DNA of 64,000 bases from Elusimicrobiota bacterium (GCA_017528425.1 JAFXOV010000003.1:25174-89173); one strand, 5' to 3'; positions 4,340-56,981 are shown, counted from the stretch's first letter. Notes: generated by a model not told the origin, from the sequence alone. Program-made: numbers and translations.

Positions 4340-4343
4340 TCTC

Positions 4344-5348: not shown

Positions 5349-5350
5349 TA

Positions 5351-7209: not shown

Positions 7210-7250
7210 TTGTTCTTGCTCGCAAGAAACAAACTGAAAGATTGTTTTCC

Positions 7251-9893: not shown

Positions 9894-9916
9894 ACTTCCT
9901 CCAAAAATATATTATT

Positions 9917-10804: not shown

Positions 10805-10856
10805 TCTTATTATCCTTAATTTAATTACTCTTCAGCCACTATCGTCATCTATAATT

Positions 10857-28066: not shown

Positions 28067-28092
28067 TTATTCTTTAAATAAACACTCCAAAA

Positions 28093-37645: not shown

Positions 37646-38733
37646 AAAATATACTTATTGCAGTCAGTGGTACAGGCGGACACGTTTATCCCGGAATAGC
37701 ACTCGCTTATGAATTGAAACAAGCAGGATATCATCCTGTTTTTATAGTGAACAATAATAAGAACGGTGTATCATTACAAATTGTGAGCAATTCCGGTTAC
37801 GATTATGAACTGTTGGATTTTAAAGCTCCTCCGAGAAAAATATCGCTGGATTTATTTTTGTTCCCGTTCAAACTTATTAAAACATTGTTTGCGGCAAAAA
37901 AAATATTGAACAAGTTTTCGCCCGTGGCAGCGGTAGGGATGGGCGCATACTTATCCTTCCCTATATTACTTATAGCAAAAATAAAAAAGATACCTACACT
38001 TATTCACGAACAAAATTCCATTCCGGGACTCGCAAACAAATTATTATCTAAGATAGTTACAAAAGTTGCCGTAAGTTTTCAAGGATCCGAAAAATATTTC
38101 AACAAAAAGAAAACAATATTTACTTCTAACCCGATAAGAAAAGACATTTTTAATATTTCAAGAACTGAAGCGGCAAACAAATTAAATCTTGATGCCGATA
38201 TTTTCACAATTTTTATTTTCGGCGGAAGTTTAGGCGCAACAAAGCTGAACAATATTATGTTCAATGTTAACGAATATTTATTTAATCGACATAAAGGTAA
38301 AATACAATTTATACATATTACGGGAAACAACGATTTCGAATCATTAGATAACAAATACAAAAAACTTAATACAAAAAAGTTTATAACAAAATATATGAAC
38401 GATATAGGAAATGCTTATGCCTGCAGCGATTTGTTGGTTTGCAGAGCAGGAGCGGGAACGGTAAAAGAAGTAGAAAATTACAATTTGCCGGCACTGTTTA
38501 TACCTTTCCCTTATGCTACCGACAATCATCAATACTTCAATGCAAAATCGGTAGAAATACCGAATTTCAGAATTGTTATAGAAGAAAAAAATATTACCGA
38601 ACAAGAAATAATAAAATTTATCGAACAATACATATCTAATGTCATAGATGTTACCAGAGTAGTTACTCCGGAATATTTCCCTCAGGAAATATTGGCTAAA
38701 GAGGTTATAAAATTAGCAAATGAAAAAATATAA
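37642..38733 (+). CDS. murG: UDP-GlcNAc--lipid I GlcNAc transferase
   Basis: 363 aa. N-terminal GTGGHVYPGIALA and C-terminal CRAGAGTV.E. Confidence 0.9.
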   Translation: MKNILIAVSGTGGHVYPGIALAYELKQAGYHPVFIVNNNKNGVSLQIVSNSGYDYELLDFKAPPRKISLDLFLFPFKLIKTLFAAKKILNKFSPVAAVGMGAYLSFPILLIAKIKKIPTLIHEQNSIPGLANKLLSKIVTKVAVSFQGSEKYFNKKKTIFTSNPIRKDIFNISRTEAANKLNLDADIFTIFIFGGSLGATKLNNIMFNVNEYLFNRHKGKIQFIHITGNNDFESLDNKYKKLNTKKFITKYMNDIGNAYACSDLLVCRAGAGTVKEVENYNLPALFIPFPYATDNHQYFNAKSVEIPNFRIVIEEKNITEQEIIKFIEQYISNVIDVTRVVTPEYFPQEILAKEVIKLANEKI

Positions 38734-39469
38734 TATTTTAATATCAAACGACGACGGAATAAACGGACCGGGCTTAAAACCTTTGATGAAAGAGTTATCT
38801 TCTTTCGCAAATATTTATGTTATTGTTCCAAAACACGAAATGTCGGGAACAAGCCATTCGATACATTTGAAGAAATGGTTAAAACTCGAAAAAAACAAAA
38901 ATAATATTTATATTCTTGTAGGCGGAACACCTGCAGACTGTGTAAAATATGCGCTATATTCTTTTTTTAAGGATAAAATAGATTTGGTTGTAGCCGGAAT
39001 AAATACGTGTGCGAACCTTGCACAAGACGTTGTTTATTCTGGAACGGTTGCTGCCGCAAGAGAAGGGGCATATTTGGGAATACCGTCAATGTCTGTTTCG
39101 GCAAGCGACGAACAAAACCCTTGTTATGAACAAACAGCCAAAGCTGCTTTAAAAATAGCAAAAACAGTATTAAAGAAAGAAAAGAAGGGGGGCAGACCTG
39201 CATTATGTTTAAATATTAATATTCCCCCCAATTATAAGGGAATAAAGGTTGTTCCTTTGGGAATAAGATGCTACGATGAAAGTGTTATAGAAAAGAAAAC
39301 AAAAAAAGGAACATACTTTAAACTTGCCGGAAGATTCATTTCCGGTAAAAAGAATAAAAAGTCTGATATTGATGCCATAGAACAGGGATACATATCGGTT
39401 ACTCCGTTGGAACTCGACCAAACCGGTTTTTCAAAAATCAAAACCTACAAAATTTTAGAAAGAATTTAA
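38720..39469 (+). CDS. surE: 5'/3'-nucleotidase SurE
   Basis: 249 aa. Motifs ILISNDDGINGPGL, GTPADCV and SGTVAAAREG. Confidence 0.88.
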   Translation: MKKYNILISNDDGINGPGLKPLMKELSSFANIYVIVPKHEMSGTSHSIHLKKWLKLEKNKNNIYILVGGTPADCVKYALYSFFKDKIDLVVAGINTCANLAQDVVYSGTVAAAREGAYLGIPSMSVSASDEQNPCYEQTAKAALKIAKTVLKKEKKGGRPALCLNINIPPNYKGIKVVPLGIRCYDESVIEKKTKKGTYFKLAGRFISGKKNKKSDIDAIEQGYISVTPLELDQTGFSKIKTYKILERI

Positions 39470-40185
39470 AAAGTAGCTCTCGCTAACGTTACCACTATAC
39501 ACTTACTTTTTAAATTTTTTAGTACTTTTGCGCATTGATTCGCAGTGCTACACGTCGTTGCAATATCATCAATCAAAAGAATTCTCTTATTCTTTATCGT
39601 ATCCACATACTTTTTATTTATCTTAAATATATCTTCCAAATTTTCTTTTCTCTGTCCTTTTCTAAGGTTAAATTGCGGTTTAGTATATTTTGTTCTAATC
39701 AAAGCATTACACATCGATTTATTGATAATTTTTGCAACATTTTCCGCCAACAATTCCGCTTGATTGTATCCCCTTCTCCACTTTTTAAACCAATGCATCG
39801 GAACAGGAACGACAACATCTATATCTTTATCGATACTCTCTTTTACTATAAATTTTGCAAGTTCCGCAGCCAAATCTTTTGCCAAAAATTGTTTTCTCGA
39901 ATATTTTAAATTCTTTATCAACTTTTTCATTTGAGTCGAATAAGTGTAAGGTGCTTTTAAAACTTCAAAATAAATATCTTTGTTGCTTTTACAATCCGAA
40001 CAGGTTGCTCCCCCGTCGGGTAACGGCAACGAACATTTATGACAAATCAATCCTTCCAATTTAGGAATGTTTTCCAAACAATTATTACAAATGTTTTGTT
40101 CCGAAGAAAACGGCAGCGTTTTCCCGCACAATGAACACGTTCTCGGGAACAAGATTGATGTAATAAAATTTAAAATTTTTTTCAT
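39466..40185 (-). CDS. comF: ComF-family protein (zinc-finger N-terminus plus phosphoribosyltransferase domain)
   Basis: 239 aa. Four CxxC pairs at the N-terminus and the PRT motif ILLIDDIATTCST. Its stop overlaps the surE stop inside TTTAAA. Confidence 0.8.
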   Translation of the reverse strand: MKKILNFITSILFPRTCSLCGKTLPFSSEQNICNNCLENIPKLEGLICHKCSLPLPDGGATCSDCKSNKDIYFEVLKAPYTYSTQMKKLIKNLKYSRKQFLAKDLAAELAKFIVKESIDKDIDVVVPVPMHWFKKWRRGYNQAELLAENVAKIINKSMCNALIRTKYTKPQFNLRKGQRKENLEDIFKINKKYVDTIKNKRILLIDDIATTCSTANQCAKVLKNLKSKCIVVTLARATF

Positions 40186-40186
40186 T

Positions 40187-43100
40187 TTAGAATTGTATCG
40201 TCAACTTACTTGAAAGTTCTATATTTGTATAATTTTGTTCGGGAACATAAGTGTATAAATATCTTGAAAAACTCGTTCCTAACGCAAATCTGAAGTTCTT
40301 GGATATTTCGTAATCTCCCGCCAATTTAAACCCGAAATTTTGATAGTTTGCAGCTTCTACATCTACCGCAGAACTTTGAGTATTGTAAAACACATTGGAT
40401 TCAAACAATAATCTGTTTTTCAACGGTATATTTCCTATCAAAGGAAGTTTTATGCCAGTCGGGAACAACAAATCCGAAGTTGCTTGACCGTTAACTGCGT
40501 TAGAGAAAACTTGTGATGCAAGATTACCTTCAGAATTTTTGGACCAATTTTGAGAATTGTCGTATCTCAAACTGAATCTCCACTGCTTAACATTTGTAGC
40601 AATCTGAACAGCCCAATTGGTTATCTGACCTTCCTGTTTTAAAACATTTTCTTCCTTATCGTATTCCTGATTTTTTGTAACATCCGCGGATAAAAACAAA
40701 TCATACTTTTTGATAACTTTTAACTTATAATCTCCGCCGAACATAATGCTGTCACCGTACGAAACACCTGCAACCGTAGTAGTTTTCTTATTGTATTTTA
40801 AATTAAGTTGTGTATCGCTCATCCAACTTTGTCCGAACAATTTTTCAAATCTGCTCATACCGATAAGGATATCCGGCCAAGTTTTTGTATAAGAATCCTT
40901 TGTGGTTCCGGTATTATACGATTCTTCTTCTCCGTCGGTAAATGTAAAGCTCATGGTCATTGTTTTTATCGGCATAAGTTTACCTTTAAAATCGAACGCT
41001 TCAAACGGATTATATCTTCCTATAATTCTTCTATCGTCTCTTTTTAATACCGTTTTAACAGTATAAGATGACGTTGAATATACCGGCTGTATTTCTTTTA
41101 AAAGGTTATCTCTTATCCATAATTTATTGGTGGCAATACCTACGGAAGAAAAGCCTTTTTCCACATTGGTATAAGAATCGGAATCCTGCATTCTGTAAGA
41201 CGTAGTGAAGGTTAAACTTCTTAAATATTTGCTGTTAAAGATATCTCTTGCCTGAAGATTCCATGTAAATTCCGTTGTCCCGACTCTGTCTATTGCCTTT
41301 TTTTCTCCAGGATAAACTTTATTTACAGATGCACTGCTATAAGTTAAATCATAAGTTTCCACGGTATTCAAACTGTAAATAATATTCGGTTGAAACCATT
41401 TTGCGACTTTAAAATTCAAACTTGCACCGATATCCTGATTTAAAGATTTATCATAAAAAATTTCTTCGTTTTCAAAATATTCTTTATTTTTTTCATTAAC
41501 TCTTGTAATAACGTAAGCAGGAGAAAATATAACTTTATCATAGAAAGAGAACGGTGCTTTAAGGCCCCAAGTTTCGGTTTTTTCCAACGTTAAGAAATCT
41601 TCCACTTCCATATATTTTCTCATTGTATCCAAATCTAAGAAAGCATTAGTATCTTCTATTTTTTCCGTCGGATAAATTTTGTATGCGGAATTACTTATTC
41701 TGTAATCTCCCACAAGACTTGTAGGTAAGAAATCAAAATCTATCGGATTTAAATAAACCATGTTAGCGGAAATAGTTTCTTTATCTTCAAGTCGTTCTAT
41801 ATTTTCCGTGTCTTTAATGAACCTGTTATATTCCAATGTGAATTTAGGTAAATCCGTTCCCGCGGATAAAACGGTATTAACATTTCCGCTATACGAAATA
41901 ACTTTACCTTCATCCAAAACAGAAACTTGGTCGGATGTATTTTGTAATGCAAGAGGTGTAACGGTTTTTGTTTTTGTTAACGATGCATTAATCGGTAAAA
42001 CTTGTGTTCCTGCTATTTCGATACCTTTAAATTCAAGGTCTGCATAATCTTCCAATAATTCTCTGTCGTAAGTTCCAGGTGCGAAAGTTTCAAAATCTTT
42101 ATCTATTCCCTTCCTATGCAAATTAACATTTAAAGCACCAATTGCTCCCCTGCCTGCCCAGTTTATACTAAAATCTGTTTTCCAGGCATTACCGTCTTTA
42201 CTTTTTGCATCTGTAACATGAATTTCGTTCACCCAAATTTCACCTGTGTCTGCTCCGTTTGTTTTTACACCGGTTTCAATGAACGCAACTTTTTGCAGAC
42301 TCGGTTCACCTTTCGGTATGATTGTAGCTCTCGGATCAACAGCAACCCATTCCGTTGTTGCTCCATACCCTTTCTGTTTAATTTCCAAGACGTTCCATTT
42401 TCCTTTCATATCATCAGTTATCGGAATAGAATATTCGAAATAATTGTTTTCGTCTCCACCGACTCTCATTATGAAATTACTTTCTTCCGGACTTACCGCG
42501 GTAGTACTTGCAATATACAAGAAGAATTTAAACTTTTCATAATTTGATAAATCAAATCCGGAACTATAAGTTGTTCTCGCAAAAAATTCGTCGCCGCCTG
42601 TACTCGAATCGTAACTTATGGCTAATGCTTGTTCATCTCTTTTAGAGTCACTGTCTATATCGTACAAATCTCTATAATATGAGTTCGTTAAAAGGGAAAC
42701 ATATTGCGGGTTATCTCTTCCTATAGAAAATATTTCACTGGTGCTAAAAGAATCACTTTGTTCTTTAGTCCACTTATTTCCGACAACGGCAATTTTACCT
42801 ATCGTCATTTTACCTTTATCATAAAAACCAGATACTCTGTTAACAGTTAATCTTGTAACTCTTATGTTTTTCCACTTTTCTTTGTCGGCATCGGATGTAA
42901 TATCCAACGGAATTTGTATTCTTTGCCAACCGGTTTTTGTAATATCGGCATACTCTTCCAAATTAAAGTTTGTAAGATTTACATCAGCCAAATCCAAACG
43001 ATTGTTACCGTTTAAATCTTCAGTATCGAGTCTGCCGTTATTTGCACCGATTTTAGATATTCCGTAAGCGGCAGTTTTGTTTGTAAAATCTCTACCTATA

Positions 43101-45736
43101 TCTTCCCAGGGACTTATTATTCCGTCTCCGTTTTTATCTTCTGTATCCAAAACATAGTTCTGATCGGAATCTTCATTCATTGCAGAAGCTAAATCAAGAC
43201 GAACATTTACCTGTGCAAAGTTTGCTTTTATCCAAATTTCCAAATACAACTTTTTTGAAAAATCGTAACCTGCCACAGATACGACTTGACCTATAGAGGC
43301 ATAATCACAAACAGACATATCATAATTTATATCCATAACCTGCTGTTTTTCGCCCGATATAATTTCCAAATTTTTGTCTATATCTTTTTTTTCTATATCG
43401 TAGTTTCTCCAAGTTATTGCATTCGTATCATATTCTGCATATATACCGTTAGGTGTTGATGCATAAAACCAATTATCGTCTATCAAAGAAAAACTGTCAT
43501 CCTGTTTTGCACTTTCCATAGATTCTATTATTGCTTTACCTGTAGTGTTTTGAATATATTTACTCATAGCATATTCCGCATTTGCGGATATGCTTAAGCT
43601 ATCCGTTATTTTTACATTTTTTACTTTTGCATCAACTTCACCTACAAGCGTACTTGACGGAGCGGAATATATATCCGGAAGTTTTGTATCTTCTGCGGCA
43701 AACTCATAAATAAAACTTCCTCCCAAAGAAATATTATCCGTAAAATCATATTGAGATCTCACTCCTACAAGAGTCGAGCCTGACGATGCTCCTCCCAACG
43801 GAGAATAATCGTAAGAAACATCTATAACGGTATCGTTGTTAATATATTCATCTTTTAAAATCGTCAATATACCGACATCGTAATCCAGCATATAGTCTTC
43901 ATTTATCTTCAAAGTTTTACCGTTTGCAACAACTTTTTCCGACATAGGAACAATACCTGTTCTTAAATTAAAAATTTTAATTTTATACTCGTATTGAACA
44001 ACAAAGTTGTATTTATGTGTATTTGATGTATATAAATCATCGTGTAACGGTTTACCTGTTATAGGTTGCAAATTGAATACACCGTTATCAAAATCTACGA
44101 TAATATTTGAATCATATCCGTCTATATTCGGAAATTTCGGAACATGTTTTCCTCCTTCTATGGAAGAAGGAATCGTATCATTTAAATCTCTGACTTCCAA
44201 TATAAAATTATCTCTGCCGTTATATTTTGTAATTTGATAGTTGCCTATGCTGTAAAAAGTATGCACTTCCGTAGATAGAGCATCGGTATTATCCGTATCC
44301 TTAATTACTTGAGGATTTCCCCCTGTTGAATCCGACAACCAAGTGCCATCCGTATATTGGTAATCGATAGCAACAACATACTGATTAGATAAAGTATTTT
44401 TAAATGTAATTATACCGGTAGTATAATCTATGGTATAGTCCGTTCCTGCCGTAAGTTTAATAAAATTACCTTTATATACTTTGGACAAATCTTTCATATA
44501 ATGCAATTCCGTATCGTCTCTTATTACGACATAATCACTGATGGTAGTTTTTATTTTATCCAAATACACTTTTGCGGAATCATTTTTTATTTTTTTAGAA
44601 GGATCACTGATAATGGAATAATATTTATATTTTATATACGAAGTATCGGATATAATTTTTTTCTCCATTTTACTGCTTCCTTTAAACTGTTTGCTTTCGG
44701 AATAACCCTTTGTTTTAGAGAAAAAGAATTTCGTTTTTAATCCCTTATATTGAGTATCAACTTTAGCACCGAACAATTCTTTTGAATATCCCGAAAATTC
44801 GGTACTCGGCAAATCAACATTAATATCACCGAAAGCGGCTTCTCTTACAAATTCGTTTCCTTTTCCCTTATAAAGAATATAAATATCTTTTTTATCTTCT
44901 TGTGTATCATCGAAATCAACATTTAATTCAAGCCTGTCTCCGACAGTACCTTTTATTTTCATTTGCAATTCTTGTTCCATGGAAAAGTCCGAAGAATTTG
45001 ATCTTTTACCGGACTCTTCATTATCATAAATCGTTCCGGAATAATTTACGCCTATCATTTTTCTTCCGGATAACAACAACTTAGAATCAAAAGGTAATTT
45101 ATCCATCATTTTTTTTGCAAAAGATTTTGCCTTATCGTCTTCTTTTTGTTTTTCTTCCGTTTCTTGTTTTCCTTTATTCTCTTCTTTTTTTGAAACAGGC
45201 TCAACAGTTGCCGTTGTTGTTGATTGATTAACATCGGCTGCCGTATCGGTAGATTTATTAAGATTTAATTTGTCTAAAACTTTTTCTCCTGCAATACCCA
45301 TTGCTGTTGTTGTAGGCAAATTCAAATCATAATTTGCTGTATTTTGCGGCTTTTCAACAATTGCACCCGAAGAATAATATGTCCCCAAATCGTTTTCATC
45401 CGGAATAACGGTCATCGAAGAAACAACAATATCTTTATTTTCTTTTACTTCCTTGTATTTTAAAGGTTTGGTAATATCAATAGCTTGTGTATTACTTGAA
45501 ACATTTACTGTATCCGTAGATATGTTTACTTGTGCCGTATCCGTAGAAACACTTATTGTGTCTGTAGATATATTTACTTGTGATGTATTTGTGGAAATAT
45601 TTACCGTGTCGGTAGAAGTTACAATTTGAGAATTTGTATTATCCGTTGCGGTTTCACTGCTTACGGAAACAACATCTTCCGCAAACATGTATACCGAACA
45701 AAACAGAAAAATAATTATCAAAAATATTTTTTTCAT
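40187..45736 (-). CDS. Giant (1849 aa) predicted outer-membrane beta-barrel protein, tentatively SprA/Sov-like
   Basis: Signal peptide MKKIFLIIIFLFCSVYMFA. S/T-rich 8-aa repeats and a K/E linker. Alternating beta-strand patterns run throughout, with an OMP-type C-terminus ..IELSSKLTIQF. The block aa 255-375 (EQELQMKIKGTVGDRLELNVDFDD...ILYKG...FGDINVDLP...ELFGAKVDTQYKGL...FFFSKTKG) parallels the SprA N-terminal pattern as I remember it. Confidence 0.85.
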   Translation of the reverse strand: MKKIFLIIIFLFCSVYMFAEDVVSVSSETATDNTNSQIVTSTDTVNISTNTSQVNISTDTISVSTDTAQVNISTDTVNVSSNTQAIDITKPLKYKEVKENKDIVVSSMTVIPDENDLGTYYSSGAIVEKPQNTANYDLNLPTTTAMGIAGEKVLDKLNLNKSTDTAADVNQSTTTATVEPVSKKEENKGKQETEEKQKEDDKAKSFAKKMMDKLPFDSKLLLSGRKMIGVNYSGTIYDNEESGKRSNSSDFSMEQELQMKIKGTVGDRLELNVDFDDTQEDKKDIYILYKGKGNEFVREAAFGDINVDLPSTEFSGYSKELFGAKVDTQYKGLKTKFFFSKTKGYSESKQFKGSSKMEKKIISDTSYIKYKYYSIISDPSKKIKNDSAKVYLDKIKTTISDYVVIRDDTELHYMKDLSKVYKGNFIKLTAGTDYTIDYTTGIITFKNTLSNQYVVAIDYQYTDGTWLSDSTGGNPQVIKDTDNTDALSTEVHTFYSIGNYQITKYNGRDNFILEVRDLNDTIPSSIEGGKHVPKFPNIDGYDSNIIVDFDNGVFNLQPITGKPLHDDLYTSNTHKYNFVVQYEYKIKIFNLRTGIVPMSEKVVANGKTLKINEDYMLDYDVGILTILKDEYINNDTVIDVSYDYSPLGGASSGSTLVGVRSQYDFTDNISLGGSFIYEFAAEDTKLPDIYSAPSSTLVGEVDAKVKNVKITDSLSISANAEYAMSKYIQNTTGKAIIESMESAKQDDSFSLIDDNWFYASTPNGIYAEYDTNAITWRNYDIEKKDIDKNLEIISGEKQQVMDINYDMSVCDYASIGQVVSVAGYDFSKKLYLEIWIKANFAQVNVRLDLASAMNEDSDQNYVLDTEDKNGDGIISPWEDIGRDFTNKTAAYGISKIGANNGRLDTEDLNGNNRLDLADVNLTNFNLEEYADITKTGWQRIQIPLDITSDADKEKWKNIRVTRLTVNRVSGFYDKGKMTIGKIAVVGNKWTKEQSDSFSTSEIFSIGRDNPQYVSLLTNSYYRDLYDIDSDSKRDEQALAISYDSSTGGDEFFARTTYSSGFDLSNYEKFKFFLYIASTTAVSPEESNFIMRVGGDENNYFEYSIPITDDMKGKWNVLEIKQKGYGATTEWVAVDPRATIIPKGEPSLQKVAFIETGVKTNGADTGEIWVNEIHVTDAKSKDGNAWKTDFSINWAGRGAIGALNVNLHRKGIDKDFETFAPGTYDRELLEDYADLEFKGIEIAGTQVLPINASLTKTKTVTPLALQNTSDQVSVLDEGKVISYSGNVNTVLSAGTDLPKFTLEYNRFIKDTENIERLEDKETISANMVYLNPIDFDFLPTSLVGDYRISNSAYKIYPTEKIEDTNAFLDLDTMRKYMEVEDFLTLEKTETWGLKAPFSFYDKVIFSPAYVITRVNEKNKEYFENEEIFYDKSLNQDIGASLNFKVAKWFQPNIIYSLNTVETYDLTYSSASVNKVYPGEKKAIDRVGTTEFTWNLQARDIFNSKYLRSLTFTTSYRMQDSDSYTNVEKGFSSVGIATNKLWIRDNLLKEIQPVYSTSSYTVKTVLKRDDRRIIGRYNPFEAFDFKGKLMPIKTMTMSFTFTDGEEESYNTGTTKDSYTKTWPDILIGMSRFEKLFGQSWMSDTQLNLKYNKKTTTVAGVSYGDSIMFGGDYKLKVIKKYDLFLSADVTKNQEYDKEENVLKQEGQITNWAVQIATNVKQWRFSLRYDNSQNWSKNSEGNLASQVFSNAVNGQATSDLLFPTGIKLPLIGNIPLKNRLLFESNVFYNTQSSAVDVEAANYQNFGFKLAGDYEISKNFRFALGTSFSRYLYTYVPEQNYTNIELSSKLTIQF
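45482..45631 (-). repeat. Tandem ~21-27 nt coding repeats (STDTxxVNI units) at the N-terminus of the giant OMP
   Basis: The peptide reads TSTDTVNISTNTSQVNISTDTISVSTDTAQVNISTDTVNVSSNTQ. The DNA shows repeated gtagatat(a/g)tttac / ccgtagaaac units. Confidence 0.8.
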
Positions 45737-45742
45737 TATTAA

Positions 45743-47359
45743 CTATTGAGCCAAAACTTTTGCATTTTTGTATTTTATATCTTTTTCATTTACAAACCAC
45801 TGATAAAAATTCCATCCTATACCTGCCGGAGCAAGTTCTACATTATTAAACCTTTTATGAACACAAACAAGGTTTTCCGGATAATATAAAAATATGCACG
45901 GCGGATCTTCTCTCATAATGTCTTGAATTTTATGGTAACATCTGATTCTTTCTTCTTTATCAAATGTTGTCCTTGCTTTTACCAACAAATCATCAACTTC
46001 GTTATTTTTGTAAGACATAAAATTGTATTGCCCTAACCCGCATTGCGAAGAATGCCACAAGGAAAACTGGTCGGGATCAATTGCAGTATTCCACCCTAAA
46101 ATAAGAGCATCAAAATTCTTTTTGTTCACATATTGGTTTAAGAATGTGCTCCATTCCAAAATTCTTATATTAACCGTAAGACCTATTTTTTTCAATTGTT
46201 CCTGTATGATTTGAGCCGTTAACTCTCTTGATTTGTTACCTTGATTGGTAATTATGTTTATTTCAAAATCTTTATTATTATAAAGTAATTTATCGTCCGG
46301 AGATTTGCTGAAACCTATAGAGAGCAAAAGTTCCAAAGCTTTTTCGGGATTATACTCATAAGGTTCTACTTCTTTATATGCCCAAGACTGCGGCGGAAAT
46401 ATTCCCCATGCGGTTTTTGCCATATCGGATAATACTCCCTTTATGATATCTTTTTTATCTATTGCATAAGATACTGCTTGTCTGAACTTGATATTATTGT
46501 AAGGTTCTTTTTCCAAATTAAATCCTAAAAAAGTGAACCCGAAAGACGGATAACGATACTTATCATAATTTTTGAAGAAAGAATCATACGCATTCCATTG
46601 ATCCGGAGTTAAAGAAAGTTCATCGATAGTTTCTGTTCTTAACTCCAAAAATTGAACCGATTGGTCCGGTATTACTCTAAACAAACAAACTTTTATTTTT
46701 GGAACACCTTCATAATAATTGGGATTAGCTTCCAAAACTATTTTTTGGTCTGTCACCCACTTTTTGAAAATATATGGCCCCGTACCTACCGGTTTTCTGT
46801 TATATTCGGACGTATTTATATCTTCATTTCTGAAAATATGTTCCGGAATTATACCTATACACCAACTTTCAAGTATCGGAGCAAAAGGTTGTTCGTAAGT
46901 GACAATAAAAGAATAATCATCTAACACTTCGAAATTCTTTACCATCAAATAGTCGGAAGAAAAAGGTGTTCTTGTATTCGGATCTGTCAATTTATCAAAC
47001 GTAAATTTAACATCTTTAACGGTAAACGGTTCCCCGTCGTGCCAAAATATATTTTTCTTTAAGTTAAACTTTATCTGTAATCCGTCTTGTGACACCTGAT
47101 AACTTTCCGCCAAATCGCAAACCAAATTTAAATCTTTATCGTATTTCAACAGTCCGTTATATATGTAAGAATTAACCGACGAGGATGCAGAATCCGAAGC
47201 TAAAACCGGATTCAAGAATATTGCATCCCCTATAGAAGACACAACATACATATCTTTTGAGACTGTATTATCGGTATAGTCGGTCAATTTATTTTCGTTA
47301 TTACAAGATAACAGCAAGACCGAGAAAAACAATAAAAAAATAAATTTTTTTAACTTCAT
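45743..47359 (-). CDS. Family-5 (peptide/nickel, OppA/DppA-type) solute-binding lipoprotein with no cognate permease or ATPase nearby
   Basis: 538 aa. Lipobox LLLSC at aa 15-19. The length and motifs (FNLKKNIFWHDGEPFTVKDVKFTF, ANPNYYEG) are typical of SBP_bac_5. It ends 6 nt upstream of the giant OMP gene. Confidence 0.85.
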   Translation of the reverse strand: MKLKKFIFLLFFSVLLLSCNNENKLTDYTDNTVSKDMYVVSSIGDAIFLNPVLASDSASSSVNSYIYNGLLKYDKDLNLVCDLAESYQVSQDGLQIKFNLKKNIFWHDGEPFTVKDVKFTFDKLTDPNTRTPFSSDYLMVKNFEVLDDYSFIVTYEQPFAPILESWCIGIIPEHIFRNEDINTSEYNRKPVGTGPYIFKKWVTDQKIVLEANPNYYEGVPKIKVCLFRVIPDQSVQFLELRTETIDELSLTPDQWNAYDSFFKNYDKYRYPSFGFTFLGFNLEKEPYNNIKFRQAVSYAIDKKDIIKGVLSDMAKTAWGIFPPQSWAYKEVEPYEYNPEKALELLLSIGFSKSPDDKLLYNNKDFEINIITNQGNKSRELTAQIIQEQLKKIGLTVNIRILEWSTFLNQYVNKKNFDALILGWNTAIDPDQFSLWHSSQCGLGQYNFMSYKNNEVDDLLVKARTTFDKEERIRCYHKIQDIMREDPPCIFLYYPENLVCVHKRFNNVELAPAGIGWNFYQWFVNEKDIKYKNAKVLAQ

Positions 47360-47365
47360 TATATT

Positions 47366-47722
47366 TTATAACTTGCTCCATTTTTGTTTTCCTTCTCTTA
47401 ACATGTTGGCACTTACCCCATCTTTTTTCAAGTGAGGATTATATTCACCACCCATATCATGCATCGCGGCTTTCCAATTTTTACTTGAATAAACGGAATT
47501 GTTATACTGTTTTATTCCGGGCAAATTATTGAACCAATTTTTAAATTTCGTCCAACCCGCTTTCACCGATGTTGTAAATCTTACAACTGCCGGTTTATGC
47601 ATAAATTTATCGTATGCTCTTTCTATTTTTTGAGTAACAGATAATTCTTCCGCATAAATTTTATTAGTTCCGACAATACAAAACAAACTGCACAATACAA
47701 AAAACAACACAAGTTTTTTCAT
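47366..47722 (-). CDS. Small secreted hypothetical protein (Lys/Trp-rich)
   Basis: 118 aa with a signal peptide MKKLVLFFVLCSLFCIVGTNKIYA. It sits tightly (6 and 13 nt gaps) between operon neighbours. Confidence 0.55.
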   Translation of the reverse strand: MKKLVLFFVLCSLFCIVGTNKIYAEELSVTQKIERAYDKFMHKPAVVRFTTSVKAGWTKFKNWFNNLPGIKQYNNSVYSSKNWKAAMHDMGGEYNPHLKKDGVSANMLREGKQKWSKL

Positions 47723-47735
47723 TTTATTCCCCCTT

Positions 47736-49811
47736 TTATACTCTTTCTAAATTTTTTTTAAAATCTTTATCTACAACAAAATTATACTTCTCTGCTTTTT
47801 CAACATCTTTTTTTGCTAAATCATATTTATTTAACAAATACCACACAGCTGATCTTTTAAAATAATACTCCCCGTTATCTCTATTTAGTGTAGTAGCCAT
47901 CGTATAACACATTAATGCTTTCTCATAATACTCTTCCAACGCAAAAACATTTCCCAACAAAAAATAACTAAAACTGTCGAAATAATCAAAATTAGAAACT
48001 AACAAATTTTGTACATCATCATATCTTTCATTTTCAAAAAAATATGCTGCTAATTTGTTAAGTATATCTGTTTTGTTATCTGCATTTTGCAGCCCTTCAA
48101 ATGCAGTCTTTTCAAAATTTACAAAATCCTTATTTTTCTCATATATCGTCATCAACTGAATATAATATGTTTCTTCAAAAGGATTCAATGTCACAGCTTG
48201 TTTCATGTTTTCTATTGCTTTATAGATATTGTTTTCTTTATAATAGAGCTGTGCCAATGTGGCAAAAAAATATCCCGGAACAAAAAAACTTGCTTTTTCT
48301 TTTTTCTTCTCCATAAAAGATAATGCTTTTTGCGTTTTACCTTCAATATCCAATATGATACCAATGTTATTTATTGCGGCTATATAGTTAACATTTGTAT
48401 ACGGAATACAAGAATAATATTTTTTTGCCTGCAAATATTCTTTTTGTTCTTGTTTTAACTGTCCAAGCCGAAAAACGGTATATGCATTAATTTTATTTAA
48501 CGAATAACTCTTTTCTATATCTTTTTCGGCTAAATTAAACTTACCTTGGTTTTTATATATAATACCTCTCAACAAATAAGCCTCGGATGCACTATCCGGA
48601 GCATAATTTACGGCTTCCGTTATTAATTTTTCGTTATCCGACCACAATATACTTCTTTGATAAGTTAAATATACAAAACTTGACCCTATAACAAATAAAG
48701 CAAAACAAACGATTATTTTTAAAATTTTGTTTCTCTTATACATACTAAACAACAATTCAGCAACCATAAAAGACAAACCTATATACGGAATATAAGTATA
48801 TCTGTCTGCTACCGGAGCAATTCCGGTAGACAAAATACCGCTTGAAGGCAATAATGTTATTAAAAAGAAAAAGAAACCAAAAAATATTTTTTTGTTTATT
48901 TTCAAACTCAATGTAACAAAAAGAATCAACAAATATAATATCGTTGCCGAAAAAAATATAAAAGCCGGAGTAAGTGTATTATGATTATAAAAATTAGGAT
49001 ACAGACACGATAAATTTATAGGCAAGAAAAATTTGTATATATAAAATAAGCAATAAAAATGAGCATCGAAGAAATTCATACATCTTACAAAAATTGTAGT
49101 AATTGCTTTTTCCTGCTCGGAATAATGTCCGGAAACAGCAACATACGAAAAAATAAGCATTATGACAAAAAACGGTATATATTTTCTCAAAAAAGTTGTC
49201 GTAACTTTGAGCTTGTTATTATAAAAATCAACCAACATAAGAATTATCGGTAAAGTTACTGCCGTAGGTTTAGACAAGCAAGAGAAAATAAAAAGAATTA
49301 TCGATAAATAATATAAATTTTTCCCTTTTTTTATTTCATAAGATTTTATATAGACAAGAAGAGACGATAAGAAAAAGAACGAAAACAAAGTATCTTTTCT
49401 TGCCGTAACCCAAGCTACAGGTTCGACATGAACCGGATGCAATGCAAAAACAAATGCGGTAAAAAATCCCACAAAGAAAGATTTCGACAGTAGTTTTATT
49501 ATATAAAACACCAACAACGTATTCAGCAAATGTAAAATAATATTATCCACATGATATAAATACGGATCTATTTTGCAAATCGAATATTCTATTGCATAAG
49601 ACAGTATAACCATAGGGTTATATAAGCCATATTGATAAGAAGAAAATATACGCTTTATGTTATCCAAAGATAAGCTTCTAATATCCTGATTATTCACAAC
49701 CATAGCGGTATCATCGAGATTTATAAAGCCGGATGTAATCGATGGATAAAAAGATAATATCACAATATACGACAAAAATATTAAGAATAATATTTGATAT
49801 TTTTTTATCAT
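47736..49811 (-). CDS. Polytopic GT-C-like (PMT/TMTC/DUF1736-like) membrane protein with C-terminal TPR repeats
   Basis: 691 aa. About 10-11 TM helices. The first-loop acidic motif GFINLDDTAMVVNN is followed by YNPMVILSYAIEY...YHVDNIILHLLN. The C-terminal ~300 aa are TPR-like. Confidence 0.7.
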   Translation of the reverse strand: MIKKYQILFLIFLSYIVILSFYPSITSGFINLDDTAMVVNNQDIRSLSLDNIKRIFSSYQYGLYNPMVILSYAIEYSICKIDPYLYHVDNIILHLLNTLLVFYIIKLLSKSFFVGFFTAFVFALHPVHVEPVAWVTARKDTLFSFFFLSSLLVYIKSYEIKKGKNLYYLSIILFIFSCLSKPTAVTLPIILMLVDFYNNKLKVTTTFLRKYIPFFVIMLIFSYVAVSGHYSEQEKAITTIFVRCMNFFDAHFYCLFYIYKFFLPINLSCLYPNFYNHNTLTPAFIFFSATILYLLILFVTLSLKINKKIFFGFFFFLITLLPSSGILSTGIAPVADRYTYIPYIGLSFMVAELLFSMYKRNKILKIIVCFALFVIGSSFVYLTYQRSILWSDNEKLITEAVNYAPDSASEAYLLRGIIYKNQGKFNLAEKDIEKSYSLNKINAYTVFRLGQLKQEQKEYLQAKKYYSCIPYTNVNYIAAINNIGIILDIEGKTQKALSFMEKKKEKASFFVPGYFFATLAQLYYKENNIYKAIENMKQAVTLNPFEETYYIQLMTIYEKNKDFVNFEKTAFEGLQNADNKTDILNKLAAYFFENERYDDVQNLLVSNFDYFDSFSYFLLGNVFALEEYYEKALMCYTMATTLNRDNGEYYFKRSAVWYLLNKYDLAKKDVEKAEKYNFVVDKDFKKNLERV

Positions 49812-49824
49812 AGCTTAATATTAT

Positions 49825-49854
49825 ATTTTACTAATTTTAGGCTTATTCTTGCAA
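49825..49854 (-). promoter_or_regulatory. Candidate promoter TTGCAA-N18-TAAAAT for the GT-C/giant-OMP operon
   Basis: -35 at 49849-49854 and -10 at 49825-49830 on the minus strand. Only 13 nt separate the -10 from the ATG at 49811 and there is no SD, so the transcript would be near-leaderless. This is pattern only. Confidence 0.3.
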
Positions 49855-49893
49855 AAAAAAGAGATATATTATATTTATATAATATATCTCTTT
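49853..49893 (-). terminator. Rho-independent terminator after lpxI
   Basis: A perfect 16-bp inverted repeat, AAAGAGATATATTATA (49858-49873) and TATAATATATCTCTTT (49878-49893), with a 4-nt loop. On the minus strand it is followed by T8 (49853-49860). Confidence 0.6.
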
Positions 49894-51496: not shown

Positions 51497-52846
51497 TTAT
51501 TTCTCCCTATCTACTATAATAAACATAAATTCTGCTTCTGCTACAAGTTTACCTTCAACAAAAGCTTCTCCTCTTACTTTACCTTTTCTTCCGCTGTCTC
51601 TTATAACCTCAACCTTTAATTCCAACATATCGCCGGGAATAACGGTTTTTCTGAATTTAACTTTATCTATTCCCATAAAATATGCTAAACAATTTCTTAG
51701 TGTCGGTCTTGATAAAAACATAACACAAGATGTTTGTGCCATAGCTTCAACAATTAAAACTCCCGGCATAATAGGTTGTCCCGGAAAATGACCTTGAAAG
51801 AAAGGTTCATTACCGCTTACACATTTATAACCTGTTGCCTTTTTATCTCCCGCACCGAACAATTTAACTCTATCTATCATTAAAATCGGAAATCTGTGAG
51901 GGATAATTTGTTGAATTTCAGCACAATTATAAACTTTTACTTCTTCCTCGGAAACATTCGTCTCTTTTTTCTCTTCTGCAACTTTCACTTTTGTTTCTCC
52001 TTTATCTATAACAGCTTTAGAAACAAACTCTTTTACAAAGCTGACATTACTTTTGTGTCCCGGCTTTTCCGCAACAAGTCTTGCTCTTATCGGTTTACCT
52101 GCCAAAGAAATATCACCGATTAAATCCAATATTTTATGCCTTACAAATTCATTATCAAATCTTAACGGTTCTTTATTGTATATTCCGTTAGGACCTATAA
52201 CTATTGCATTATCCAAGCTTCCGCCTTTTGCAAGGCCGTTCGACTGCAAAGCTTCAATCTCAAAATCGAAACAAAATGTTCTTGCAGGTGCAATATCGTT
52301 AAGATAAGATTCTTTCGTTATTTCAAATGTTGCTTGTTGATTTGATAAGAAAGGATGATCGTAACCTATTGTACAATCTATTTCCAATTTGTCACTGGGA
52401 TATGCAACAATTTTTGTGTTACCCGATATAAATGTAACAGGTTCTTTTATTGTATAAAATTCTTTTTCTGCATCCAGTTCTTTTATACCCGACTCCAATA
52501 TTTTCTGTGCAATAACTTTTGCACTTCCGTCCATGATGGGAGGTTCGTTATTATCTATTTCTATTATTAAATTATCTACTCCCAAAGCAAAACATGCAGA
52601 CAAAATATGTTCTATGGTATGAATTTGAACATCTCCGGACTGAATGGTTGTTCCTCTTATAGCAACACCGCTGGACAAGCTGTTCCAATCTGCTTTTATG
52701 TCGGGTTTGTTCGGTAAATCTACTCTAACAAAATGTATGCCCGTATTTTTTTCTGCAGGTTTAAATACCATTTTACTTTTGTTTCCGGTATGTAAACCTA
52801 CTCCCTCGATAGTGAATTCTTTTTCAATAGTAGTTTGTTTTATCAT
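51497..52846 (-). CDS. lpxC/fabZ: Bifunctional UDP-3-O-acyl-GlcNAc deacetylase / 3-hydroxyacyl-ACP dehydratase (LpxC-FabZ fusion)
   Basis: 449 aa. The LpxC N-terminal part has QTTI..EF...GVGLHTG and HKILDLIGD. The FabZ C-terminal part has LPHRFPILMIDRV and GHFPGQPIMPGVLIVEAMAQ. Confidence 0.92.
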   Translation of the reverse strand: MIKQTTIEKEFTIEGVGLHTGNKSKMVFKPAEKNTGIHFVRVDLPNKPDIKADWNSLSSGVAIRGTTIQSGDVQIHTIEHILSACFALGVDNLIIEIDNNEPPIMDGSAKVIAQKILESGIKELDAEKEFYTIKEPVTFISGNTKIVAYPSDKLEIDCTIGYDHPFLSNQQATFEITKESYLNDIAPARTFCFDFEIEALQSNGLAKGGSLDNAIVIGPNGIYNKEPLRFDNEFVRHKILDLIGDISLAGKPIRARLVAEKPGHKSNVSFVKEFVSKAVIDKGETKVKVAEEKKETNVSEEEVKVYNCAEIQQIIPHRFPILMIDRVKLFGAGDKKATGYKCVSGNEPFFQGHFPGQPIMPGVLIVEAMAQTSCVMFLSRPTLRNCLAYFMGIDKVKFRKTVIPGDMLELKVEVIRDSGRKGKVRGEAFVEGKLVAEAEFMFIIVDREK

Positions 52847-53885: not shown

Positions 53886-56800
53886 TTAAAAAACATTTCC
53901 TATAGTAAAATAGAATTGTTGTAAATCTTCGCCTCTTTTATGATTCAAACCGTATCCCCAATCAAGTCTCAACGGGAATACCGGCGTTGCAAATCTTATA
54001 CCGAAACCGAAACCGGATTTTAAATAATATGAGTTTGTATCGTCATTATCCGTTCCAAAAGAGAAATTAACATGATTTATATCTTTCCAAGTTCCTCCGA
54101 TATCGTAGAAGAACGCACCTTGCAATATTGTTCTCTTGTTTTCTTGAACGATAGGGAACTTATATTCAACATTTGCTACAGCCATTACTTTACCGCCGTT
54201 ATAAGGACCTACTTCCGTTCTGTATTTATAACCTCTTATTGTGTCTGCTCCGCCGACATAATATTTTTCATACAAAGGAACATCCGAAGAGTCTCCGTAA
54301 CTTTCTATCCAACCCGTATTAATATTTATCGACAAAACAAATTTCCAGAATGTAGGGAAGAACCATGTTCCCCTGACTGAATTTCTTACATAATTAACAT
54401 TACCGCCTAACGGTCCGCCGGCAACACTTATTCCGTAAGAATATCTGACTCCCTTTGATGCATCATAAATATAATCCCTTGTATCATAAACTATTTGAGC
54501 TCTGACACTTGATGTTCTGTCTTTTGCCAAATCGGGATCGTTCATAATGTCTTCTTTAAGTTCGTCATCGTCTATATCAAAAATTCTGACATGTTCGTAA
54601 GTATAACCGAACAACAACGCTATTTTATCTGCCACTCTCGGACTTATTGATACCGAGCCTCCGAGTCTTCCTTCCCTGTAAGCATCACTTGTATTATGAT
54701 AATCTCTTAATCTTTCTATGTTATATACCGACAATCCTAAACTCATGGCTTTTCCCAAGAACCAAGGTTCAGTCCAATCCAATTCATAATTTTGTCTTCT
54801 TGCACCGAACTCCCACAACAAATTCAATTTCTGTGCTCTTCCGAACAAATTCATATGTTGTAACTGAATTGAACCTACAAACTTATCTACGGAAGAATAA
54901 CCCGCACCGGCAGTTATCATACCGGGCTTACCTTCAGTTATGGAAAAAGCCAAATTCATAATATCAGGTTGCCCCGTAGGGGAAATATTCGGTTCTGCCC
55001 CGTCAATAAAGCCTAAATTATAAATTTTTTCCATACTCCTTCTTACTTTACCGGAAGAGAAAACATCGCCCGGTCTAAGTAAGATTTCCCTTCTTATGGT
55101 ATTATCTTTCGTGTGTGTTAAACCATCTATGTAAAGATCACCGACATAAACAATATTGTTTTCCTGAATGTTAAAATCAACATTAACAACATTATCTATT
55201 ATCTTTTTCGTTTGAAGTTTGGCCATTTTGTTTTCTAATTTGGTCTTTTTCTTTTCAAGCTTTTTAATTTCTTCATATTTAAGACCTTGTTCTTCACTTT
55301 CGTTACCGTCTATTTCTATTTGCATTTCAGACATATCACCGGCACCAAGATCTGTTAATTGTTGTTTAACTTCATCCAATTTTGTCTGTAATTTTTCTTC
55401 TTTCTTGTTCTGTTTTTCTAATTTCTTTTCCTGTTTTTTTACTTTCTTTTCCTCTTTGGCAACAAGTTTTTCTTTGTTTTTTTCTTCTTTTGCCAACTTC
55501 TTTTCTAGCTTAACTTTTTTCTTTTCGAGCTTTTTTGCCTGTTTTTCGGTAAGAACAAAAATTTCGCCATCTTCTATTTTCTGATTAACTTCATCTATAT
55601 CATTTTGTACAATTTGCTCTTTGCTTTTTTGTTCCGTAACTTTTCTTTCTCTCTTTTCCAATTCTTTATGTGCTTTTGCCAATTTCTTTTCTAATTTAGC
55701 TCTTTTCTTTTCAAGTTTTGCAACATATTTTTCTTCTTTATATTCTCTATATTCCAAATTCTGGTCTACAACAGCTATTTTATCTTTTATACTTTGCTCT
55801 TTAGCATTTTGGTTTAAAACTTCGTTTTCTCTGTTTCTTGTTTTATATTTTGTTCTTTCAAGTTTTCTGTTTAATTTTTTAATTTTTTTATTAGCGGCAG
55901 TTCTGTTTACTTTTGTTTCTATTTGCTCGTCAATAGTATCAATATCATCTTGTATTACAATTTCTTTTTCCGTTTTTTTGGAGCCGAGTTCTTCCTGCAT
56001 TAAGTTATCGGTACTTTTTGAAAAATCCGGTTCGATATAAGAATGTAAATAACCTCTGTTTGAATAATCATCATAAACTTTATTTAAAAGTTCAAGTATC
56101 TTTTCTTGATTGAATATTTCATTTCTTTTTATTGTGGAATGTTTTGATAATTCCTTGGATGATATTACCGAATTACCTTCAAAGCCTATATCTCCCATTT
56201 TATATCTCACACCCTCATTTACTCTTAAAGTAATAAACATCTTGGTTCTTGCTTCATTGTATGTTATTTCGGGTTCATCAACCGAAAAGTCCATAAAACC
56301 GCGATTAACATAAAATCTCTTTATTGAAGCCATATCGCTTTTCAAAGTTTCTTCTTTGAAAACTTTTTTCTTTTTTGTTTTAGCTAACTTTTTAATTTTT
56401 TTGTTTTTAAAACTTCTTACACCTTCAACAAACAAATCTCCCACCAAAACTTTATTGTTTTCGGTAATAAGGAAAGTTATCGTCATTGTATTGGTATCTT
56501 CATCGGTGGTAGGATACACTTCCATTTGGCAATCGGCATATCCTTTGTCTTTATATAAAGTAATAATTTTTCTTTTTGATTCTTCAAGGTCAATAAAATT
56601 ATAGAAATCTTTTTCTTTTAAGGTAAGTTCCCCTTTCAACTTGTTTTCGGAAAATTGTTTATTGCCTTTAAAAACTATTCTCTTAATATATGGTTTTTCC
56701 ACTACAGTAAACTTAACTATTTTATTTTCTTTATCTACGGAAATTTCAGCATTATCAAAATATCCCAGTCCTAAAACAGTTCTTAAATCTTCTCTCGCTA

Positions 56801-56981
56801 TGGATGTAGCATACACCTTACCCTTTTTCAATTGAATTTCGGAACGGACTGTTTTCGGTTTTACATTTTGCAATCCATCGAAAACAACATCTTTTATTCT
56901 AAAAATAGTATCATCATCCGCAAAAACAAAAGGTGCACAAAAAATTACAGCCAATATAGACATTAAAACTTTTTTAATCAT
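53886..56981 (-). CDS. bamA: Outer-membrane protein assembly factor BamA with a ~275-aa coiled-coil insertion in POTRA4
   Basis: 1031 aa. Signal peptide, then five POTRA-like units and a C-terminal Omp85 barrel (..YVGGADTIRGY.., terminal FYFTIGNVF). aa 321-595 are K/E-rich and interrupt the fourth POTRA between YLHSYIEPDF and VNVDFNIQENN. Confidence 0.88.
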   Translation of the reverse strand: MIKKVLMSILAVIFCAPFVFADDDTIFRIKDVVFDGLQNVKPKTVRSEIQLKKGKVYATSIAREDLRTVLGLGYFDNAEISVDKENKIVKFTVVEKPYIKRIVFKGNKQFSENKLKGELTLKEKDFYNFIDLEESKRKIITLYKDKGYADCQMEVYPTTDEDTNTMTITFLITENNKVLVGDLFVEGVRSFKNKKIKKLAKTKKKKVFKEETLKSDMASIKRFYVNRGFMDFSVDEPEITYNEARTKMFITLRVNEGVRYKMGDIGFEGNSVISSKELSKHSTIKRNEIFNQEKILELLNKVYDDYSNRGYLHSYIEPDFSKSTDNLMQEELGSKKTEKEIVIQDDIDTIDEQIETKVNRTAANKKIKKLNRKLERTKYKTRNRENEVLNQNAKEQSIKDKIAVVDQNLEYREYKEEKYVAKLEKKRAKLEKKLAKAHKELEKRERKVTEQKSKEQIVQNDIDEVNQKIEDGEIFVLTEKQAKKLEKKKVKLEKKLAKEEKNKEKLVAKEEKKVKKQEKKLEKQNKKEEKLQTKLDEVKQQLTDLGAGDMSEMQIEIDGNESEEQGLKYEEIKKLEKKKTKLENKMAKLQTKKIIDNVVNVDFNIQENNIVYVGDLYIDGLTHTKDNTIRREILLRPGDVFSSGKVRRSMEKIYNLGFIDGAEPNISPTGQPDIMNLAFSITEGKPGMITAGAGYSSVDKFVGSIQLQHMNLFGRAQKLNLLWEFGARRQNYELDWTEPWFLGKAMSLGLSVYNIERLRDYHNTSDAYREGRLGGSVSISPRVADKIALLFGYTYEHVRIFDIDDDELKEDIMNDPDLAKDRTSSVRAQIVYDTRDYIYDASKGVRYSYGISVAGGPLGGNVNYVRNSVRGTWFFPTFWKFVLSININTGWIESYGDSSDVPLYEKYYVGGADTIRGYKYRTEVGPYNGGKVMAVANVEYKFPIVQENKRTILQGAFFYDIGGTWKDINHVNFSFGTDNDDTNSYYLKSGFGFGIRFATPVFPLRLDWGYGLNHKRGEDLQQFYFTIGNVF
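55197..56021 (-). repeat. Lys/Glu-rich coiled-coil insertion with three copies of an (A/I)KKLEKKK(V/T)KLE(K/N)K(L/M)AK unit
   Basis: Peptide copies are AKLEKKRAKLEKKLAKAHKELEK (aa ~421-443), AKKLEKKKVKLEKKLAKEEK (aa ~482-501) and IKKLEKKKTKLENKMAKL (aa ~572-589). DDIDTIDEQIE and NDIDEVNQKIE are also paired. Confidence 0.8.

Follow-up and report, generated by a model that had tools for sequence, protein, structure and literature searches.

Known outer-membrane translocons of type IX secretion systems (T9SS) are SprA of Flavobacterium johnsoniae and Sov of Porphyromonas gingivalis (structures 6H3I and 6H3J; family models TIGR04189 and PF14349), and the reviews and primary papers that were searched describe the T9SS as confined to Bacteroidota or to the Fibrobacterota-Chlorobiota-Bacteroidota (FCB) superphylum. 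In the literature that was searched, nothing relevant was found linking Elusimicrobia or Endomicrobia to the T9SS, SprA or gliding. A DNA stretch of 64,000 nucleotides (nt) from a rumen Elusimicrobiota bacterium (GCA_017528425.1, JAFXOV010000003.1:25174-89173; the whole stretch is referred to as the window) contains a block of five minus-strand open reading frames (ORFs) at 39466-49811, which ORF calling resolved, in order of transcription, into products of 691, 118, 538, 1849 and 239 amino acids (aa). The initial annotation had regarded the block as a combination matching no described system and as a single machine for modifying, binding and exporting a substrate. The first of these claims did not hold: on profile comparison, the 1849-aa ORF is a full-length homolog, about 25% shorter, of SprA/Sov, and the block is likely to be a mosaic operon particular to one clade, in which the translocon gene of a T9SS-like Elusimicrobiota pathway stands among genes with ordinary functions of their own. 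The other described families with which the locus was compared are the TMTC1-4/PMT-type O-mannosyltransferases with tetratricopeptide repeats (TPR), the OppA/DppA-type solute-binding proteins (SBP), and the ComFC/ComF/GntX proteins, which are phosphoribosyltransferase (PRTase)-like. The five genes are as follows.

47736..49811, minus strand: 691-aa predicted inner-membrane glycosyltransferase-like protein with a glycosyltransferase-C (GT-C) fold and a TPR C-terminus (Pfam TPR matches, AlphaFold2 model, Foldseek)
47366..47722, minus strand: 118-aa small protein, predicted to be Sec-exported and all-helical (alignment, AlphaFold2 model)
45743..47359, minus strand: 538-aa family-5 (Opp/Dpp-type) peptide-binding lipoprotein (PF00496, lipobox)
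40187..45736, minus strand: 1849-aa putative outer-membrane translocon homolog of the SprA/Sov family (TIGR04189 and profile against the Protein Data Bank)
39466..40185, minus strand: 239-aa ComF/GntX-family protein with a double zinc ribbon and a PRTase-like domain (PF18912, PF00156)

The 1849-aa protein comprises a signal peptide (residues 1 to ~20), a conserved SprA core (residues ~205-1849) and a C-terminal Phe; the signal peptide and the C-terminal aromatic residue are also found in SprA/Sov. A profile of 24 homologs was compared with the Protein Data Bank (PDB), and the sole match was SprA of F. johnsoniae (6h3i_A, E=2.5e-108), with profile positions 143-1766 aligned to positions 140-2376 of the chain, giving near-whole-length homology via this bridging profile. 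A profile built from Elusimicrobiota sequences alone again retrieved SprA (E=3e-35, 3 stretches). The use of a profile was required, and a single-sequence phmmer search of the PDB returned no match. The NCBIfam model TIGR04189 matched the protein in four stretches (131.4 bits, E=2.1e-38), under its 200-bit cut-off, and no Pfam family, SprA_N (PF14349) included, was matched at E<=0.01. Among the 116 homologs that were found, PF14349 was present in distant ones; the closest named homologs were those of Ca. Ruminimicrobiellum ovillum and of rumen Endomicrobiaceae metagenome-assembled genomes (MAGs), at 81-90% identity, and that of Endomicrobium proavitum was 46% identical. The automated annotation of the E. 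proavitum ortholog already reads 'SprA N-terminal domain', and the SprA homology itself was therefore not hidden. The window protein differs from SprA in length (1849 aa versus 2403 aa) and in falling under the curated family cut-offs. It also differs from SprA/Sov in its conserved neighbours, comF and lptFG, and in its host, which belongs to the Elusimicrobiota (Endomicrobiaceae, near Ca. Ruminimicrobiellum) and thus lies outside the Bacteroidota and the FCB group. Mapping of insertions against SprA homologs of the FCB type gave many small indels and was uninformative.

Gene order was read by tblastn and by clustering of flanking ORFs in 81 Elusimicrobiota-type loci (labels L0xx), comprising 80 loci obtained with a nine-sequence query from contigs of one genome per species, together with the locus of E. 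proavitum; the denominators were 67 loci for the comF side and 63 for the lptF/lptG side. The comF gene was located within 1.5 kb downstream of the sprA homolog and on the same strand in 57 of the 67 loci, with a median gap of 11.5 nt, and the pairing persisted from 85% down to 28% SprA identity, making comF a phylum-wide downstream partner of the sprA homolog. We know of no conserved comF position directly behind an SprA-type gene in the T9SS loci of Bacteroidota. On the other side, lptF/lptG were present upstream of sprA in 47/63 loci and were divergent in 45, and the 16 loci without them belonged mostly to the window's own clade. The divergent lptF/lptG pair represents one of three arrangements in which sprA was found in lipopolysaccharide (LPS) or outer-membrane gene surroundings. 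In the second, which is that of the window's clade, bamA-lpxD-lpxC/fabZ-lpxA-lpxI lie upstream, and in the third (L058, L059 and L077, Elusimicrobiaceae) the conserved downstream clusters c51 and c33 were assigned by eye only as waaA-like and heptosyltransferase-like.

Partners of the T9SS type were encoded beside the sprA homolog in many relatives. The recurrent order in many Elusimicrobiota was a TPR lipoprotein, a PorV/PorQ-like protein, an M6 protease with a C-terminal sorting domain (CTD), divergent lptG-lptF, and sprA-comF. The PorV/PorQ-like proteins scored 130.7 bits with NF033709, above the 90-bit cut-off, and a 19-sequence profile of them gave PorV of the SprA complex (6h3i_F) as the sole significant match in the PDB (E=9.7e-17). 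Approximately 20 related loci have a PorV-type gene next to sprA. L006 and L007, which belong to the window's clade, are among them; these two loci carry the same block and have genes for the M6-CTD protein and the PorV-like protein three genes upstream of it. The M6 protease of L006 matched the type A sorting domain TIGR04183 with 32.5 bits (cut-off 23). A CTD hidden Markov model (HMM) built from the relatives matched 23 ORFs over the loci. It also recognised a bona fide Por_Secre_tail protein encoded on a contig of the FCB type, as well as a fibronectin type III (fn3) protein encoded directly after the SprA-like gene in L082. Spacings of only 6 and 9-10 nt divide the PorV/PorQ-like gene, sprA and comF in two MAGs of Ca. 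Endomicrobiellum, endosymbionts of termite flagellates (L018:7838-15640 and L020:7844-15641), and the endosymbionts L018, L020 and L035 have kept the sprA homolog intact in their small genomes. Endomicrobiellum is a genus with compact genomes of ~1.15 Mb, and an intact, tightly packed sprA in such a genus is therefore a hint of a near-essential system.

A module consisting of the TPR lipoprotein (~280 aa, no family match), the PorV/PorQ-like protein and the M6-CTD protein was observed on the side of lptFG away from sprA in L017, L021, L026, L032, L034, L037 (3097-7071), L039, L049 and L052, and in several of these loci it was preceded by two more conserved genes, identified by eye only as ahcY-like and, less often, metK-like. 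The TPR lipoprotein of this module could be an analogue of PorW/SprE. PorKLMN, PorU and PorZ were not recognised in the annotated clusters around sprA, most flanking clusters never having been run against family libraries. In the window, tblastn gave no match to the TPR-lipoprotein neighbour of the relatives.

The full block has a much narrower distribution than sprA-comF. Only loci of Ruminimicrobiellum, Praeruminimicrobium, Proruminimicrobium and their near kin, all with at least 57% SprA identity, have the GT-C/TPR, 118-aa and SBP genes in front of sprA, so that the five-family synteny on which the initial annotation had made its proposal depend, when looked at in the 81 loci, was limited to this one family-level subclade and was variable there. 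The block order is constant inside the clade and both flanks vary between genera. A gene for the DNA recombination protein RmuC lies between the 118-aa and SBP genes in L004 and L006-L009 (e.g. L006:7041-8324), the block of L023 is without the GT-C gene, and that of L024 is without the small gene and the SBP gene. With rmuC and comF, the presumed envelope operon of L004 and L006-L009 contains two DNA-related genes.

SprA-like genes were also found in candidate division FCPU426 (L083, 5908-26225) and in the related locus L082 (6001-26429). The gene encodes ~2100 aa (with fn3), and an lptG-lptF-PMT_2 operon runs divergently from it, so that members of these protein families recur near sprA in a second phylum. 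Its downstream neighbour in L083 is a gene for a ComF-like PRTase with 30% identity to the window ComF; farther downstream are genes for a CTP-transferase, a family-5 SBP (SBP5), a weak CTD protein and oppBCDF; the SBP5 is 45% identical to the window SBP over its full length, and L082 has SBP5 and oppBCDF in the matching position. No sequence similarity was detected between the window GT-C/TPR protein and the PMT_2 protein beside the FCPU426 SprA-like gene, and the recurrence is at the level of fold class only.

Homologs were found in number for all five ORFs of the block, which are therefore real genes. The layout recorded in the initial annotation was confirmed by the ORF calls: the intergenic gaps along the block are 13, 6, 6 and 1 nt. 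Its boundaries were likewise as proposed. Downstream, surE (38720-39469) is convergent with the block and overlaps the end of comF by 4 nt, and upstream a gap of 110 nt separates lpxI from the first gene. The RNA of this gap has a predicted folding energy of -25.1 kcal/mol (z=-4.09), and 0/200 shuffles were as stable. Two elements were located here.

49851..49893, minus strand: intrinsic-terminator-like element following lpxI, consisting of an AT-rich hairpin (16 bp, perfectly paired; 4-nt loop) and then a U-run
49825..49854, minus strand: promoter-like site, TTGCAA-18 nt-TAAAAT, 9/12 consensus matches, candidate only

The hairpin at 49851-49893 was not picked up by the terminator consensus scan, which is G+C-biased, and the site at 49825-49854 is considered only a candidate promoter because such sites are no commoner in the region than in shuffles. 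Generic consensus scans inside the block gave 55 promoter-like sites (56.6 in shuffled sequence) and 7 terminator-like sites (6.3 in shuffled sequence). With counts equal to those of shuffles, the operon is neither backed nor split by these scans, and nothing visibly splits the block. A clear Shine-Dalgarno sequence was present for one of the five genes only, the 118-aa gene. Co-transcription of the five genes is plausible and they probably form one operon.

The component assignments of the initial annotation were retained, namely a GT-C and TPR membrane protein, a small secreted protein, a family-5 binding lipoprotein without permease or ATPase genes, ComF and, given the SprA/Sov homology, a predicted giant outer-membrane barrel. 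The 691-aa protein consists of a polytopic GT-C-fold part (residues ~1-400) and a TPR part (~400-691). The AlphaFold2 (AF2) model of its N-terminal half had a predicted local distance difference test (pLDDT) score of 83.6 and a predicted template modelling (pTM) score of 0.88. All of the top 31 matches in a Foldseek search of the PDB were GT-C-fold membrane proteins, with query TM-scores (TMq) of 0.32-0.53 and a probability of 1.00 for 29 of them and of 0.97 for the other two (DPY19); these included STT3, PglB, AglB, Pmt4, Pmt1/2, ArnT, DPY19, Emb and AftA, and rank 19 was PIGU, a GT-C-like subunit of glycosylphosphatidylinositol (GPI) transamidase. The fold search was required, as the sequence profile of the GT-C domain found nothing in the PDB at E<=10, and Pfam recognised TPR families only, with no PMT, PMT_2 or DUF1736. 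In an alignment of 11 sequences with 35-54% identity, residues D33-D34, in what is predicted to be the first extracytoplasmic loop, do not vary. The GT-C fold, the DD motif of the first loop and the C-terminal TPR array are common to the TMTC/PMT-type enzymes with TPR, and the 691-aa protein, like that group, belongs to a large family spread over many phyla: 938 homologs were found, some of them named protein O-mannosyl-transferase or having PF02366/PF13231. It differs from TMTC/PMT in lacking a match to PMT, PMT_2 or DUF1736 and a PDB sequence match, and in its clade-specific link to sprA. By architecture, the protein resembles a TMTC/PMT-like GT-C glycosyltransferase, and this activity is a prediction from model and motif.

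In Endomicrobium-type genomes, GT-C/TPR orthologs (42-44% identity) are encoded between thyX and a Na/H exchanger gene, far from sprA. The GT-C/TPR proteins of L003 and L024 are longer, their extra C-termini being K/E-rich repeats; a fusion of the 118-aa protein onto these variants was considered and ruled out, since the extra C-termini are unrelated to it. The G+C content of the window gene (47736-49811) is 27.9%, clearly below the 32-34% of its neighbours, a difference that may stem from the codon content of a membrane protein or from an origin of its own.

The SprA homologs of the window's clade have an N-terminal extension of ~200 aa, of which residues ~25-90 (nt ~45467-45664) are Ser/Thr-rich. 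A 48-nt tandem repeat of 2.5 copies at 45498-45616 encodes Ser/Thr-rich 'VNISTDT' repeats just past the signal peptide. Extensions of ~195-254 aa are almost confined to the clade with the GT-C gene upstream of sprA; outside it, one N-terminus of 257 aa (L073) was found, which looks like an ORF-start artefact. The Ser/Thr repeats are a possible candidate target for O-glycosylation, judging from their composition.

The 118-aa family is very small (24 clusters among 1.84 billion representatives) and is characterised in the alignment by the conserved motif W..FK.WF.NLPGI.HYN.S.YS..NYKKEM. No Pfam or NCBIfam match was obtained for it, and comparison of its AF2 model (pLDDT 80.9, pTM 0.43) with PDB folds gave no meaningful match. 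The 538-aa lipoprotein has a lipobox, LLSC, at residues 16-19 and matches SBP_bac_5 (PF00496) at residues 79-440 with E=1.4e-97; the full-length PF00496 match and the lipobox are shared with OppA/DppA-type SBPs. Orthologs of 53-60% identity were found across Elusimicrobiota, and in L087 and L088 they head the opp genes within M16-M16-SBP-oppB-oppC-oppD-oppF operons, in keeping with OppA/DppA-type proteins. The window protein differs from these in that every specific equivalog model (Opp4A, NikA, DppA) scored under its cut-off, and in that its gene, 6 nt upstream of sprA, is apart from permease and ATPase genes, none of which were found for it within the 64-kb window. The 239-aa protein has the double zinc ribbon (PF18912, E=2.4e-11) and PRTase-like domain (PF00156, E=3.7e-05) common to ComFC/ComF/GntX proteins, and differs from them in scoring under the NCBIfam cut-offs (GntX 116 bits, TIGR00201 112 bits).

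The same-strand genes upstream of the block are rpoD, dnaG, bamA, lpxD, an lpxC-fabZ fusion, lpxA and lpxI. The LpxC-FabZ fusion protein comprises 449 aa, and BamA, with five POTRA matches, is unusually long at 1031 aa (positions noted for this pair are 51497-52846 and 53886-56981). Elsewhere the window consists of core housekeeping DNA, with a Bat/MoxR operon, a GH57 enzyme, leuA/leuC, tatC, pssA/psd, holB, tmk, RNase P RNA and a mraW-ftsI-mur-ftsW-murG cluster. The Bat/MoxR-type operon (1698-11852) encodes a MoxR AAA protein, a DUF58 protein, two von Willebrand factor type A (VWA) proteins, a TPR protein and BatD, and has embedded in it an 880-aa Sel1-repeat protein (7251-9893) and a 291-aa ORF without family match (6334-7209); the ORFs at 3488-7209, considered as opp permeases, were rejected as such and correspond to Bat/VWA/TPR genes. 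The class A RNase P RNA (27735-28067) scored 101.4 bits, barely above the Rfam gathering threshold of 100, and therefore represents a divergent RNase P RNA in this lineage. A 323-aa ORF at 16613-17584 had no Pfam match and is located between an amino-acid-kinase-family gene and a PD-(D/E)XK nuclease gene.

The block is most readily interpreted as the Elusimicrobiota sprA/sov gene and its phylum-wide neighbour comF, probably within a lineage-specific, co-transcribed mosaic. On this reading the GT-C/TPR, 118-aa and SBP genes have no dedicated role in the pore and are gathered at sprA in this lineage only. What was taken for a novel machine resolves into known families that have come together in a single rumen/gut lineage, an outcome that is mainly corrective for the initial proposal. 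In such a pathway, the 1849-aa protein would form, by homology to SprA, a very large barrel in the outer membrane, through which Sec-exported cargo with a type A CTD, such as the M6 metalloprotease of relatives, would cross before being passed on to a PorV/PorQ-type barrel. The 691-aa enzyme would glycosylate periplasmic or secreted proteins from a polyprenyl-phosphate sugar donor, and the 118-aa protein would be a periplasmic helical protein. The 538-aa lipoprotein would be the phylum's conserved OppA-type peptide binder, its gene presumably split from oppBCDF and set before sprA in this clade, and ComF would be a cytoplasmic PRTase-like protein whose tie to sprA is positional. Several observations weigh against this interpretation. 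The window protein scores under the curated thresholds for SprA (TIGR04189 at 131 versus 200 bits; no SprA_N), and its length falls ~550 aa short of that of SprA. In the 64-kb window, neither tblastn with the genes of relatives nor the CTD HMM detected a gene for a PorV-like or CTD-bearing protein. The preservation of block order despite differing flanks makes some functional coupling of the neighbours possible, as does the recurrence of GT-C (PMT_2), ComF-like and SBP5 genes near the FCPU426 SprA-like gene. The embedding of sprA among LPS genes and its intactness in reduced endosymbionts could indicate a role in envelope biogenesis instead of classical secretion.

The single trans-envelope machine of the initial annotation, in which the GT-C protein modifies a substrate, the small protein and SBP bind or chaperone it, and the barrel exports or anchors it, draws on this coupling. 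It is consistent with the tiny gaps, with internal terminators not above chance, and with the GT-C/small/(rmuC)/SBP/sprA/comF order kept in Ruminimicrobiellum, Praeruminimicrobium and Proruminimicrobium, and the FCPU426-type genomes place a PMT_2 GT-C gene, a ComF-like PRTase gene and an SBP5 gene (45%) within 10 kb of the SprA-like gene. However, the FCPU426 GT-C protein is of another subfamily and its SBP has its own oppBCDF, and reshuffling of an old lptFG / sprA-comF ... opp neighbourhood would account for the pattern equally well. The five-gene synteny is missing in most Elusimicrobiota, where sprA-comF and divergently oriented lptFG are the phylum-wide elements and genes for PorV-like proteins and CTD cargo lie close by, and the GT-C and SBP orthologs occur in unrelated, self-explanatory contexts. 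In the sister genera the unrelated rmuC is inserted, and L023 and L024 lack members of the block. The near restriction of the Ser/Thr-rich SprA extension, the possible O-glycosylation target, to the clade with an upstream GT-C gene would also fit such a machine, but this correlation is confined to a single clade and therefore represents one evolutionary event. A single dedicated machine is accordingly judged improbable. The chance is similarly small that the Elusimicrobiota SprA homolog serves mainly in outer-membrane or LPS biogenesis, as a housekeeping barrel for LPS export or surface anchoring and not as a dedicated secretion pore. The three LPS/outer-membrane arrangements of sprA, the PMT_2 (ArnT-like) gene in the lptFG operon beside the FCPU426 SprA-like gene, and the intact gene in the endosymbionts L018, L020 and L035 agree with that role, whereas characterised members of the family are protein translocons only and PorV-like partners and CTD cargo are encoded next to sprA. 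In Bacteroidota the T9SS is itself linked to LPS, with cargo anchored to anionic LPS (A-LPS), and LPS neighbours are therefore compatible with secretion.

The tight, phylum-wide sprA-comF pairing (57/67 loci, median 11.5 nt), its extension to FCPU426, and the rmuC gene within the block of L004 and L006-L009 were also considered as signs that the large barrel has a part in taking up or processing DNA across the outer membrane. Other genes replace comF downstream of sprA in 10/67 loci, and adjacency of unrelated housekeeping genes is commonly conserved; moreover, ComF-family proteins act on the cytoplasmic side of DNA uptake, and passage through the outer membrane is normally via PilQ secretins. 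A function in DNA uptake is consequently very unlikely. Beyond the preferred interpretation of a T9SS-like translocon gene in a mosaic operon, a broader proposal, taken as a whole, is tentative and rather doubtful, ranking above the alternatives just given: Elusimicrobiota and at least FCPU426 would hold a streamlined, possibly ancestral type IX-like export system made up of a compact SprA, a PorV/PorQ barrel and CTD cargo. This system may work without the PorKLMN motor and ring. It would be tied genetically to LPS export (lptFG), and its retention in reduced endosymbionts suggests a near-essential envelope function; in the Ruminimicrobiellum clade the co-transcribed TMTC-like enzyme would O-glycosylate the Ser/Thr-rich extension of SprA or the cargo.

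What is new here is an SprA subfamily that is compact, scores under the family thresholds and occurs outside the FCB group, with comF and lptFG as its own conserved neighbours and, in many relatives, with PorV-like and CTD partners. If followed up on complete genomes, this would widen the known range of T9SS-type secretion. The compact homolog would provide a smaller natural variant for structural and mechanistic work, and it would allow a test of whether the PorKLMN motor is dispensable for an SprA-PorV translocon.

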